Positions 2,271 to 7,959 of a stretch of 64,000 nt of DNA are shown one piece after another; position 1 is the stretch's first letter, and every line of letters starts with the position of its first letter. The position numbers were made by a program, and so were the translations under genes. The notes under the pieces are model-generated. The model ran no database searches. It was not told where the DNA came from and saw only the letters and a program-made list of their open reading frames with translations. Source of the stretch: Promethearchaeota archaeon (GTDB taxonomy: Archaea > Asgardarchaeota > Lokiarchaeia > Sigyniarchaeales > SOKP01); assembly GCA_019058445.1 (NCBI GenBank), contig JAHPZA010000008.1:1-64000 (forward strand), given 5' to 3'.

Positions 2271-3899
2271 TTACTCTATGCTTTTTAATACTTTTCCTGC
2301 GAATAAATTAGTATTAAACTCATCTTTTTCAAGTACTACTTTCCCGTTTATTAGCACATATTCTATCCCTTCAGATGGTTGGTAAGGATTAGTATATGAT
2401 GCTCGATTATTAACCGTCTGAGGATTGAAAATAGTGATATCTGCAAAGGCACCTTTTTGCAAAATACCGCGATCTTTAATTTGCATTTGTTTTGTGGGTA
2501 AGGAGGTCATTCTTCGAATTGCCTCTTCCTGGGACATAGCTCCTTTCTCTCGCGCAATTTGCCCTAAAACTTTCGTAAAATTCCCATAGGCGGCAGGTGA
2601 AATTGTTTTTAAGCCAGCACCAACGATATCTGTTCCAATGGAGCAATTAGGATCAGAAAGAAGCTCAACCACAAAGTCTTCTGCCATTGGATTATCAAAC
2701 TGACCAGAAATTATAAATAATTTTCCTTCTTCTTCAATAACTAACTCTATAAATGCTTCAATTGGCTCTAATTTTAACTTATCTGCAATATCTTTCAACT
2801 TCATATTTTCAAATCTTTTATTTTTCTTTTGACGAAAACCTGCAAGTATTACGGATGCATTAAAGTCTCGATCCACCCAATATTTATTTTCCCATGGAGG
2901 CCACTTTACCTTAAAAGTTAGCATTTCTTCAATAGCTTGCTTTCGAATTTCAGGTTTTTTAAGCAGATCCAAATTGATCCCCCCGTCAAAAAGCCATGGA
3001 GGAAACCAAGAAAGAACAGTTGTAGAAGAATTTGGCCAAGGGATATTGTCATGATTTATTTTAACTCCACGTTCTATTGCTTCTTGAACTAATTTTAGGG
3101 ATCGTTTTCTAACTCTTCCGATTCCTCCTCCACAATGATGCGAAATGTGTAAAGGAATATCATTTTTTTCCGCGACTTGAATCATTTCTTCAATGGCATC
3201 CGCATATAATTTACTGAAAAGACCTCTTGTATGCGGTACAATTGGCAATTTGTACTCGGTTAAAACAGATGCCAATTCAATTAGTTCCTCTGTATTAGAG
3301 TACATTCCGGGAACATACCCTAAACCAAATGATAAACCAAATGAGCCAGATTCAATAGATTCTTTTAATAATTCTTTCATTTCATTTATTTCTTCGGAAT
3401 TTGCAAAGCGCGCATCAAAGCCCATAACGTTTGTGCGGAGAGTGTTATGACCTGTCAGAATCGCTACATTAAGAGTTTGACCTTTTTTTTCCAAAAAATC
3501 CAAAAATTCTGCCATTGTGGTCCATTCATAATTAAACTCATCATACGGTAAAGCAAAATTCCAATAGGTATTTATTAATTCCTCATATTGATGATTTATG
3601 GGAGCCGGGCTGTAGCCACAATTACCTGAAACCACAGTCGTGACTCCCTGACGTATCCAATTCTCTAGAACGCTAATCTCTTGTGATGATGCAATTATGA
3701 AATCAAGATGAGAATGAACATCTATAAATCCGGGGGCAACAGCCAATCCTTCAGCATCAATAATCATAGATGCTTCTTCTTGATCAAATTTTCCAACATC
3801 TTCAATGCGATCTTTATCTATTAAAACATCAGCTTTAATAGCTGGTGTACCCGTACCATCAATAACTAATCCATTTTTAATTAAAATATCTTTTGCCAT
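2271..3899 (-). CDS. N-acyl-D-amino-acid deacylase (D-aminoacylase) family amidohydrolase
   Basis: IDGTG, PGFIDVHSH, GVTT..GNCG, HTR, SHH, AIRRMTSLP. ATG at 3899 preferred because GAGGAG lies just upstream. Confidence 0.9.
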   Translation of the reverse strand: MAKDILIKNGLVIDGTGTPAIKADVLIDKDRIEDVGKFDQEEASMIIDAEGLAVAPGFIDVHSHLDFIIASSQEISVLENWIRQGVTTVVSGNCGYSPAPINHQYEELINTYWNFALPYDEFNYEWTTMAEFLDFLEKKGQTLNVAILTGHNTLRTNVMGFDARFANSEEINEMKELLKESIESGSFGLSFGLGYVPGMYSNTEELIELASVLTEYKLPIVPHTRGLFSKLYADAIEEMIQVAEKNDIPLHISHHCGGGIGRVRKRSLKLVQEAIERGVKINHDNIPWPNSSTTVLSWFPPWLFDGGINLDLLKKPEIRKQAIEEMLTFKVKWPPWENKYWVDRDFNASVILAGFRQKKNKRFENMKLKDIADKLKLEPIEAFIELVIEEEGKLFIISGQFDNPMAEDFVVELLSDPNCSIGTDIVGAGLKTISPAAYGNFTKVLGQIAREKGAMSQEEAIRRMTSLPTKQMQIKDRGILQKGAFADITIFNPQTVNNRASYTNPYQPSEGIEYVLINGKVVLEKDEFNTNLFAGKVLKSIE

Positions 3900-3980
3900 T
3901 TTTCTGCTCCTCAATATACAATAATAATGTAATTTTAAAAAAAATTTAAATTTTAATATTTGGATGTTCTAACTTTCGAG

Positions 3981-3994
3981 GATAAATTTTATAT
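3981..3994 (+). promoter_or_regulatory. Archaeal BRE/TATA promoter upstream of the structured RNA
   Basis: GATAAA followed by TTTTATAT, about 24 nt upstream of GGA at 4018. Confidence 0.5.
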
Positions 3995-4017
3995 ACATAT
4001 TCGTCTTATTTTTTTAA

Positions 4018-4229
4018 GGAATTAAAAAACAATCTTACCCCTAAACTGGGGTGAAATAGAGAAACTCTCGTAAAATTCATTTACTATGTAGGATAATATG
4101 AACCATTATCCGTTAAGGTAGTCTTTAAAAATTTACGGGAAACAATGATAACCCAATCATTCAGTGATGTAGTTAATAGCTACAATATCCAAAACAATCT
4201 ATTTTCACCCCACCTTTTACTTTTTTTCC
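4018..4229 (+). ncRNA. Candidate novel structured non-coding RNA or leader element
   Basis: Closing helix 4047-4060/4198-4212; nested stems 4066-4077/4130-4140, 4083-4087/4118-4122 and 4091-4097/4105-4111; hairpins 4144-4161 and 4168-4184. G-U pairs form only on the + strand. Upstream TATA and downstream U-tract. Confidence 0.65.
4213..4229 (+). terminator. Oligo-U archaeal terminator-like tract
   Basis: CCTTTTACTTTTTTTCC directly after the closing helix. Confidence 0.45.
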
Positions 4230-4324
4230 TTTAAAATTCAGATGTGAATAAATAATCCGTAACAATTTAAAGGAATAACCAGATAATCTTCTTAGATAAA
4301 ATCTTTTTCAAATAAATTTATAAT

Positions 4325-4924
4325 ATGAAAAACGAAGTACAAAAAAACAAAGAATACGAATATAAATGTATTCAATGTGGGAATTGTTGCCGAGCAGGAT
4401 TCGAAGTAGTTATTGAAAAAGAAGATATTGAAAGATGGATAAAATATGAGCAAAATGAGTTCGTTCAGTTTATTCAAATTGACCCGAAATGTATTTCTCC
4501 TACTGGATTAGGAGGTTTTCACATTGAAGAGGTTAATACATTACAAAAGATCAAAGAAACCTATAAAGAAAATGAAGTTAATGAAAAACTGGAGGATTTA
4601 AAGCAGTTTATTCTCAAAAATCATAATTATTTTGGAAAAGGTTCTCCCCTCCCCATTTATACTTTTATACCTGATTTAGGGAGAACTCCGATTTTAGTTC
4701 CCAAAACCTTTCAGATAATCTTGGAAGGATTAAAATGGGGCTTGATTTATACTATAAAGTTTGAACTCGGAGGATATTGCCCCTTTTTAAAAGAAAATCT
4801 ATGTTCCATTCATCAAATAAAACCTAATGTATGTAGGAGTTTCCCTTATACTAAGAATGGGGAATTGAAAATTGATGATTACCTTATAAAAATTTGTAAA
4901 GGAATTTCTAAGGACTCTTCTTAA
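4325..4924 (+). CDS. YkgJ-family (zinc/iron-chelating) cysteine cluster protein
   Basis: CIQCGNCC N-terminal motif and CPFL...CSIH.IKPNVCRSFP...C C-terminal motif, with a long central insertion. Confidence 0.85.
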   Translation: MKNEVQKNKEYEYKCIQCGNCCRAGFEVVIEKEDIERWIKYEQNEFVQFIQIDPKCISPTGLGGFHIEEVNTLQKIKETYKENEVNEKLEDLKQFILKNHNYFGKGSPLPIYTFIPDLGRTPILVPKTFQIILEGLKWGLIYTIKFELGGYCPFLKENLCSIHQIKPNVCRSFPYTKNGELKIDDYLIKICKGISKDSS

Positions 4925-7002: not shown

Positions 7003-7959
7003 TTATTTCTTCTTTTCAACCGGAAAGCGTGGTTCTTCGTTGATTATTAATTGAAAAATATCAGGTCTTGCATAATGCCCTACCACATCAAAATCTAACT
7101 TACTCTGAATGACTTTAGATAAATCAAGATTTGCGTATAAAATCCCCTCTTTATCATAGAGAGGTCCGGCTAATACATGTCCTGAGGGAGAGATAATTAC
7201 ACTCCCACCTCGACACATAATTTCAGGTTGGTTTTCAAGCTTATCAAGTTCTTCTAAATCAAGTGGATACATATCTTTTGTCACAAACTGATTGCAGCCT
7301 AACACATAACAACGTCCCTCTAAGGCAATGTGCTGCATCGTGGCTTGCCATCGATCTCTATGATCAGCTGTAGGTGCGAGATATATTTCGACTCCTTTAC
7401 CATACATAGCCATGCGAGCTAAGGGCATATAATTTTCCCAACAAATTAAGCCTCCAATCTTTGCGATGTCGGTGTCAATTACAGTAAGAGTGCTTCCATC
7501 ACCCTCACCCCAGATCAAGCGTTCAGCAGCAGTAGGTTTTATCTTTCGATGTTTTCCAAGAATTTTACCATCTGGACCGAAATATAAAAGAGTACAATAG
7601 AGTGTACCTCGACTAAATTGAGTATCTCGTTCTATCACCCCAATAGCTAAATAAACTTTTGATCCTTTAACTGCTTCACTTAAAATCTCTGTAGTAGATC
7701 CCGGGATATCAATAGAATTTTCCCAATATCGCTGCCACACTTTTCTTCCCTCTGGACTGCGGTCCCCAATAACATTTCCAAAAGTTAAACCTCTAGGATA
7801 TGCGGGAATAAACGCTTCAGGAAATAAAATTAATTGTGCTCCTTGGTTTGCGGCTTCAGAAATCAATTTACACACTTTTTCTAATGTAGCATTGAGATTG
7901 AATAAAACAGGGGCTGCTTGTACAACTGCAACTTTTACTTTAGAAAATTTTTCTTTCAT
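7003..7959 (-). CDS. Nitrilase (carbon-nitrogen hydrolase family)
   Basis: Glu-Lys-Cys triad motifs FPEAF, HRKIKPT, ICWENYMPLAR; C-terminal DVVGHYARPD. Confidence 0.92.
   Translation of the reverse strand: MKEKFSKVKVAVVQAAPVLFNLNATLEKVCKLISEAANQGAQLILFPEAFIPAYPRGLTFGNVIGDRSPEGRKVWQRYWENSIDIPGSTTEILSEAVKGSKVYLAIGVIERDTQFSRGTLYCTLLYFGPDGKILGKHRKIKPTAAERLIWGEGDGSTLTVIDTDIAKIGGLICWENYMPLARMAMYGKGVEIYLAPTADHRDRWQATMQHIALEGRCYVLGCNQFVTKDMYPLDLEELDKLENQPEIMCRGGSVIISPSGHVLAGPLYDKEGILYANLDLSKVIQSKLDFDVVGHYARPDIFQLIINEEPRFPVEKKK

Follow-up and report, generated by a model that had tools for sequence, protein, structure and literature searches.

Results

Architecture of the locus

The window, by which we mean the whole stretch of 64,000 nucleotides of Lokiarchaeia DNA analyzed here, carries on its plus strand a segment (4047 to 4212) that RNAfold, applied to 4040 to 4230, folds into a 14-bp closing helix (P1) enclosing three arms (P2 to P4). 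A promoter-like motif and a predicted leader precede the fold, and a T-rich tract follows it (Table 1). Downstream lie the genes for YkgJ, a PF03692 protein, and then for an aldehyde:ferredoxin oxidoreductase (AOR). The minimum free energy of the folded segment is -44.4 kcal/mol, compared with -28.6 +/- 4.0 kcal/mol for 200 dinucleotide shuffles (z = -3.94), one of which folded as well; the minus strand folds less exceptionally (z = -2.07). The RNA gene is single copy in this 4.6-Mb, 10-contig genome, where BLAST of positions 4018 to 4229 finds only the query itself. Its core measures 164 nt here and 134 to 169 nt across the family of homologs described below, and at a G+C content of 30 to 35% the RNA forms no GC island.

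Table 1. Features of the RNA gene and its upstream region (positions in the window)
Feature	Position	Strand	Basis or remark
Putative BRE/TATA promoter, GGATAAA-TTTTATATA (family consensus RGAAAAG-TTTTATATA)	3980..3995	+	Nearly invariant; 32/32 aligned upstream regions
Promoter-proximal element TTCGTCTTA (family consensus TTTGTCTTA)	4000..4008	+	About -18 to -10 from the predicted start
Predicted 5' leader	4016..4046	+	Start at about 4016-4018, about 23 nt after the TATA; from TATA-to-start spacing
P1 closing helix, 5' strand (UGGGGUGAAAUAGA)	4047..4060	+	RNAfold; part of the family with the highest sequence conservation
P2, long interrupted arm	4066..4140	+	P2a 4066-4074/4132-4140; P2b 4083-4087/4118-4122; P2c 4091-4097/4105-4111
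P3 hairpin (AAUGAU-AACCCA-AUCAUU)	4144..4161	+	Stem 4144-4149/4156-4161; RNAfold and covariation
P4 hairpin (UGUAGUU-AAU-AGCUACA core)	4164..4188	+	Stem 4164-4174/4178-4188; lineage specific
Single-stranded A-rich linker (CCAAAACAA) joining the arms to the 3' strand of P1	4189..4197	+	A-richness shared by nearly all members
P1 closing helix, 3' strand (UCUAUUUUCACCCCA)	4198..4212	+	14 pairs with 4047-4060, one bulge; RNAfold and covariation
T-rich tract (CCTTTTACTTTTTTTCC), probable archaeal oligo-T terminator	4213..4229	+	Predicted site of termination

Conservation upstream of the RNA begins abruptly at the BRE/TATA motif and runs to the predicted start, and the sequence further upstream is unrelated among members. 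Judging from the archaeal BRE/TATA consensus, the motif presumably acts as a promoter, and it is conserved on the plus strand only. In archaea, the center of the TATA box lies at about -26 from the transcription start. Within the promoter-proximal element, TGTCTTA is almost invariant across both genera in which the RNA was found. In this genome, the TTTGTCTTA element occurs only at the RNA gene and is seen in neither the tRNA nor the RNase P RNA promoters; a factor site and a promoter-proximal element are the possibilities that we consider for it. The TATA region also resembles the P1 3' strand, a likeness that we dismissed as coincidence, given that the TATA region is unchanged where P1 changes in the lineage of this genome. 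At the other end of the gene, a T-rich tail follows P1 in most members, and some have no T-tract directly after P1.

The first-pass annotation of this DNA, made from the letters and a list of open reading frames, had described these helices together with a BRE/TATA motif and a U-tract. All of them lie where it placed them, RNAfold returns the same architecture, the promoter motif is conserved in the family, and the folding energy is better than that of the dinucleotide-shuffled controls. Its three arms are likewise reproduced in this genome, but the hairpin at 4164 to 4188, to which it had ascribed a T-loop-like pentaloop, is found in the closest relatives only and is not a feature of the family. 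It had further read G-U wobbles as a sign of the strand. G-U pairs do outnumber A-C mismatches in the family alignment, but only modestly (88 versus 64 cells), so that the strand assignment depends chiefly on promoter conservation, the T-tract, and the z scores.

Homologs and their distribution

By BLAST, two other genomes of this genus proved to carry full-length relatives (87% and 82% identical), with the whole intergenic region conserved. A covariance model (R1) built from the window RNA and these two relatives detected the RNA in 13 of 101 family genomes, with exactly one full-length match in each; all 13 belong to two genera (g1 and g11). With a second model (R2), 36 of 151 genomes of the order were positive, each with one full-length copy: three of seven genomes of g1 plus the window's own genome, and 32 of 53 genomes of g11. 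There was no R2 match in the 22 other genera of the order. A third covariance model, searched against 52 genera of the phylum, matched in g1 and g11 and in none of the other 50. Further copies came from pattern scans of contigs in GTDB and in metagenomes, bringing the set to 45 distinct sequences. The homolog-bearing metagenome-assembled genomes (MAGs) are labeled Promethearchaeota or Promethearchaeia archaeon, with a few labeled Hermod- or Hodarchaeota, and come from one Lokiarchaeia family. The labels bear out an origin in Loki-type Asgard archaea, and the first-pass annotation was right to assume Asgard DNA.

Weak R2 matches in three genomes (E values of 0.08 to 0.9) were set aside as spurious, being devoid of P1 and promoter and, in two cases, looking like coding sequence. 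A hunt for diverged homologs in other genera by means of the promoter motif returned the degenerate pattern at the background rate, with forward and reverse counts close to those of the reversed-pattern control; R2 found no match on 22 loci from other genera, and viral contigs gave no match to the RNA pattern. One 99%-complete genome of the same genus yielded no credible copy, so the RNA is either not essential to the genus or has diverged there beyond detection. As far as these searches reach, the RNA family is restricted to two Lokiarchaeia genera. Given this confinement and its absence from a near-complete congener, it is probably a lineage-specific accessory RNA and not a universal machine.

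Conservation of the fold

Across the 45 distinct sequences, standard base pairs occupy 80.7% of the cells of the proposed pairs, compared with 39 to 44% when the 3' partners are slid by 1 to 3 columns. Double compensatory changes occur in 31 of the 46 pairs, and none of 500 shuffles reaches any of the observed measures. The alignments behind these counts, which were also made on a 32-sequence version, were fitted to the covariance model and are thus not independent of it. By helix, double changes are found in 8 of 16 pairs of P1, in 14 of 21 pairs of P2 (helices 2 to 4), and in all six pairs of P3, the stem of which reads GGAAAAA/UUUUUCC in the other genus versus AAUGAU/AUCAUU here. Minimum free energy folds of 13 members, each computed from its single sequence, nearly all give P1, a three-segment P2, and P3 despite their differing sequences. 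Given a plain MAFFT alignment, in which the variable arms are misaligned, RNAalifold recovers no helix but P1; the support for the arms therefore comes from the single-sequence folds and the model-fitted counts.

The best-conserved letters of the family are those of P1 (consensus GGGGUGAUAUAUAGA / UCUAUWWUCACCCC, about 15 bp). Loops and arms vary in sequence and length, the number and length of the arms differ between the genera, and no single-stranded stretch is conserved in sequence beyond its A-richness. The P4 hairpin is identical in three genomes of this genus, gives way to other hairpins in that position in three further ones, and is absent from g11. Since the helix-to-helix lengths fall into all three classes modulo 3 and no open reading frame or frame is conserved, the RNA is not coding. 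Judged from these comparisons, the fold is more than a product of chance, being kept in homologs with compensatory changes.

Alternative pairing between the leader and P1

Within the leader, a segment that we call anti-P1 (UUACCCC, 4035 to 4041) can pair with GGGGUGA (4048 to 4054) of P1; in the other genus, leader segment AUAUCAUUCC stands opposite P1 GGGGUGAUAU. Folding predicts a hairpin in the leader of 45 of 45 members (-3.1 to -11.6 kcal/mol), and the complete transcript favors P1 in every case. The two states come to -46.4 and -44.3 kcal/mol in this genome, about 2 kcal/mol apart. Duplexes of the leader with the P1 5' strand are moderately stronger than those of shuffled leaders (mean z = -1.8; 26 of 45 below -1.64, among sequences that are kin), and a control stretch further upstream pairs more weakly with P1 than the leader does. 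In one member whose P1 is changed to GGGGUAUU, the leader (AAUAC) and the 3' strand of P1 have each undergone matching changes. These comparisons are suggestive only of a meaningful complementarity between the leader and P1.

The leader and the P1 3' strand compete for the GGGGUGAU segment, which has a perfect Shine-Dalgarno-like match of 8 pairs to the 16S rRNA 3' end (GGAUCACCUCCU) of this organism, and both competitors resemble an anti-Shine-Dalgarno sequence. The match of GGGGUGAU to the 16S rRNA 3' end is probably coincidental.

Signs of expression

Parts of the RNA stretch occur in 20 public runs, three of which are metatranscriptomes from three different studies; the signs of expression come from sediment and wetland metatranscriptomes. 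Within 3800 to 4500, the metatranscriptome contigs (61 to 152 nt, 90 to 99% identical, and hence from relatives) cover only 4065 to 4209. They stop at 4207 to 4209, none of them runs on into unlike sequence, and one contig pair passes at 4207 straight into Illumina adapter sequence, so that a fragment must have ended at this point. A DNA run covers the whole stretch from 3800 to 4500. The flanks (3800 to 4064 and 4210 to 4500) have no cover from RNA runs; since the source relatives are 90 to 95% identical and their flanks may fall under the 88% identity threshold, the missing flank cover is no evidence of silence. Being assemblies from relatives, the RNA-library contigs show presence, not level or true termini. 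They give a hint of an abundant small transcript with its 3' end at or just beyond the P1 3' strand.

Neighboring genes

As one of two readings, the first-pass annotation had proposed that the RNA is a regulatory leader for YkgJ. Acting in cis on YkgJ-AOR as a riboswitch or attenuator, such a leader would terminate transcription through P1 and the U-tract and antiterminate through the leader hairpin. Consistent with such a device, the RNA stays with YkgJ-AOR in three genomes though the upstream genes differ, the U-tract lies directly 3' of P1, and the two states of the transcript are nearly isoenergetic. The wider gene neighborhoods argue against it. Among the 40 distinct loci with a called downstream open reading frame, YkgJ lies downstream in only 5; the downstream gene is convergent in 14, in 12 of these an OGG-like gene, which at one locus is only 29 nt away. 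Instead of the coherent same-strand genes expected downstream of a riboswitch or 5' leader, the downstream genes form six unrelated clusters. At the locus studied here, the T-tract and a second, separate BRE/TATA-like motif (TCCGTAACAATTTAAAGG, approximately 4256 to 4273), conserved in the three YkgJ-linked genomes, intervene between the RNA and the start of YkgJ, and the RNA-library contigs end where P1 ends. Because of the varied neighbors, the frequent convergence, and the separate promoter-like motif, we rejected the reading as a YkgJ leader; the gene neighborhoods largely refute it, and we regard it as very improbable.

Just 3' of this second motif, within 4256 to 4303, lie two near-palindromes, AGATAATCT and AGATAAAATCT (AGAT-N-ATCT), which are kept in the three YkgJ-linked genomes. 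The motif and the palindromes look like a promoter of YkgJ-AOR with a possible operator.

On the upstream side, a same-strand aminopeptidase gene directly precedes the RNA gene in 20 of 41 loci, those of g11; from a reading of its sequence, we take it to be of the M29 type. In two g1 genomes, the aminopeptidase gene lies downstream and is convergent. This adjacency is probably ancestral synteny.

Known RNA classes and other identities

None of the 4227 models of Rfam 15 matched at the gathering score anywhere in the window, and at E <= 10 the region from 3900 to 4340 gave only three chance-level matches of 12 to 19 bits. Rfam likewise found nothing on the RNA at six homologous loci, and a literature search found no description of this RNA. 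Specific signatures were also looked for. No RF00001 (5S rRNA) match falls on the RNA at E <= 10, and it lacks the signatures of loops C and E. As for box C/D small RNAs, the C box (RUGAUGA) is found in 0 of 45 members and CUGA in the last 40 nt in 0 of 45. As for H/ACA small RNAs, ACA-NNN stands at the end of the modeled span in 0 of 45 members, and by eye the internal loops hold no tandem G-A kink-turn. For Y RNAs, this 92.6%-complete genome has no PF05731 (TROVE/Ro60) match, and no Rfam Y RNA model matches.

The opening of the stem invites comparison with tRNA: in a tRNA-like RNA or an intron-laden tRNA gene, GGGGUGA/UCACCCC followed by ACC would serve as the acceptor stem, a substrate for RNase P, RNase Z, or the CCA-adding enzyme. 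The stem of this genome does open with a 7-bp G-C-rich helix followed by ACC, the leader of about 30 nt would need removal or tolerance, and tRNA genes are hard to recognize in this genome, where ARAGORN reports only 23, most of them with long introns. The helix, however, extends over about 15 contiguous pairs, and its covariation reaches past pair 7; no D- or T-arm adjoins it, the T-loop sequence GTTCRA occurs in 1 of 45 members and the ACC tail in 19 of 45, and the arms change in number and length between the genera. Neither the Rfam tRNA model nor ARAGORN, which finds no tRNA in the window, detects anything on the RNA, and we judge this identity highly unlikely.

A strongly diverged universal RNA fares worse still. 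A multihelix junction closed by the 5' and 3' ends brings 5S rRNA to mind as the closest in shape, with signal recognition particle (SRP) RNA and RNase P RNA as other candidates, and this genome gives no match to the Rfam models for 5S rRNA and archaeal SRP RNA. RNase P RNA (RF00373), however, is accounted for on contig C3 at 7495 to 7803 with 127.5 bits, five relatives that carry the RNA have a separate RF01857 match (238 to 321 nt, 65 to 86 bits), and 5S-like genes bearing the signatures of loops C and E are found at other places in a closed relative and in this genome (contig C4, 391.5 to 391.8 kb). The RNA itself has none of these signature motifs. These separate loci already refute the idea, to which we give hardly any weight.

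Equally negligible is the chance that the element is not an RNA at all and represents a MITE, a palindrome in the DNA, or a minus-strand gene for a small protein. The 14-bp terminal inverted repeats and a minus strand that stays open for about 51 codons in some members speak for such an origin. Against this, the arms keep their pairing through compensatory changes, promoter conservation is limited to the plus strand, and the pattern is absent from viral contigs. Every positive genome holds one copy, and the closing-helix pattern is no commoner in the window than expected by chance, for which reason a MITE or other repeat was discarded; the length differences are not multiples of three, and stops interrupt the minus-strand frame in many members. 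Copy number and length pattern thus already refute a non-RNA origin.

Discussion

Our data indicate that positions 4016 to 4229 of the plus strand constitute, very probably, a stand-alone structured noncoding RNA gene of a new family. Its promoter motif is kept among the members, a T-tract is present, the neighbors vary, and the RNA-library contigs lie on the RNA body only, these being contigs from relatives that do not fix its ends. The discrete noncoding RNA that the first-pass annotation had named as its other reading is supported by a single-copy gene with one covarying homolog per positive genome, a conserved promoter, and contigs confined to the body. Its suggestion that the RNA belongs to no known family agrees with the missing Rfam matches in the window and at the six homologous loci. 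The homologs to be sought across Asgard genomes exist, with one full-length copy per positive genome, and their compensatory changes (31 of 46 pairs in 45 sequences, in a model-fitted alignment) supply the covariation by which it had proposed to judge the structure. The novelty is that of a new family fitting no known class, not that of a demonstrated new mechanism.

We propose a model for the synthesis and action of this RNA. The BRE/TATA motif and the element at -18 to -10 would start transcription about 30 nt upstream of the fold, and the T-tract would end it. During transcription, the leader may pair first with the P1 5' strand, forming a transient anti-P1 hairpin that guards this strand; once the P1 3' strand has been made, the longer P1 would displace the hairpin, and the leader would possibly be trimmed. 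The mature RNA would then act in trans, most likely bound by protein, with P1 as the recognition handle and the arms as variable scaffolding. Taken jointly, a stand-alone gene of a new family and a trans-acting, most likely protein-bound product appear to us a likely combination; protein binding as the specific mode of action is a tentative proposal that we would put at somewhat below even.

The main alternative to a protein-bound RNA is a trans-acting regulatory RNA that works by base pairing, in which the fold would present a single-stranded seed, either the A-rich linker or a loop, to target mRNAs. A stand-alone gene with its own promoter and T-tract would suit such a regulator, as would the restriction to one lineage and the absence from a near-complete congener, which are typical of accessory regulators, and nearly all members retain an unpaired, A-rich linker. 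Its weakness lies in the pattern of conservation: no unpaired stretch is conserved beyond A-richness, and the loops vary. Because the invariant positions are found in the paired strands of P1 and the loops and arms diverge, recognition of P1 by a protein seems likelier than a base-pairing seed, and we consider regulation by base pairing unlikely. A more elaborate scheme, in which the RNA is the core of a new Asgard-specific ribonucleoprotein or riboregulator with a built-in two-state switch, one state engaging 30S subunits or another partner and the other being silent, would be conceivable from the competing pairings and the Shine-Dalgarno-like match of GGGGUGAU; we regard it as a long shot.

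With respect to known systems, the nearest kind appears to be the orphan stand-alone structured RNA genes of archaea. Such genes were reportedly described by Klein, Misulovin and Eddy in 2002 as the Hgc RNAs of Methanocaldococcus, an AT-rich archaeon, and several Hgc RNAs were reportedly assigned to known classes later. They share with the RNA described here an intergenic single-copy gene, its own archaeal promoter and oligo-T end, a stable fold, and a restricted lineage. In contrast, there is no similarity in sequence or to an Rfam model, our RNA forms no GC island, and it shows none of the marks of the classes to which several Hgc RNAs went.

Y RNAs and bacterial YrlA, which are bound by Ro60, resemble it in that the long stem closing the 5' and 3' ends is the best-conserved part, with a single-base bulge, variable arms, and a U-rich 3' tail. 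This resemblance points to a possible mode of working, with the stem as a protein handle; the genome has no TROVE/Ro60 gene, no Rfam model matches, and the stem sequence is unrelated, so that the RNA is not a member of this group. In 5S rRNA (about 120 nt, versus 134 to 169 nt for our family), the ends also close a junction carrying a long interrupted arm and then a shorter hairpin, whereas here an A-rich linker precedes the 3' strand, the 5S signatures are missing, and 5S-like genes lie at other loci. Riboswitch aptamers likewise have a P1 that encloses a junction and a competing hairpin that uses one P1 strand. Unlike them, the RNA here has no conserved downstream gene and many convergent neighbors, it has its own probable terminator, a separate putative promoter precedes the next gene, and no junction nucleotides suggest a ligand pocket.

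Asgard archaea are the closest known prokaryotic relatives of eukaryotes. To our knowledge, hardly any of their structured RNAs have been described apart from rRNA, tRNA, RNase P RNA, and SRP RNA. A covariation-supported RNA family of 45 sequences with a promoter and an architecture can be added to RNA family catalogues and would improve the annotation of these MAGs, and it offers a concrete target for pull-down, probing, and structural work as soon as cultures or heterologous systems exist.

Some other RNA genes of this genome were noted along the way. The Archaea_SRP model (RF01857) detects no SRP RNA in this 92.6%-complete genome, and the SRP RNAs of the five relatives score below the gathering score of 96.5 bits, which indicates that the SRP RNAs of the family are divergent. 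The Rfam 5S model, which finds nothing in this genome, gives only 22- to 27-bit matches in the family (cutoff, 38), and these carry the loop C and loop E signatures. On contig C4, outside the window at approximately 391550 to 391760 on the minus strand, BLAST with the 5S matches of the family finds the 3' two-thirds of a 5S rRNA with a 5' part immediately after it, the loop C of which has an insert of about 27 nt; these could be tandem, permuted, or intron-bearing 5S genes. The tRNA genes of the genome seem to be intron rich and hard to detect: most of the 23 that ARAGORN calls in 4.6 Mb have predicted introns, of up to 118 nt, and some are clearly misassigned. Its calls include a tRNA-SeC (contig C1, 27020 to 27126) and a tRNA-Pyl-like gene (contig C9, 655982 to 656074).
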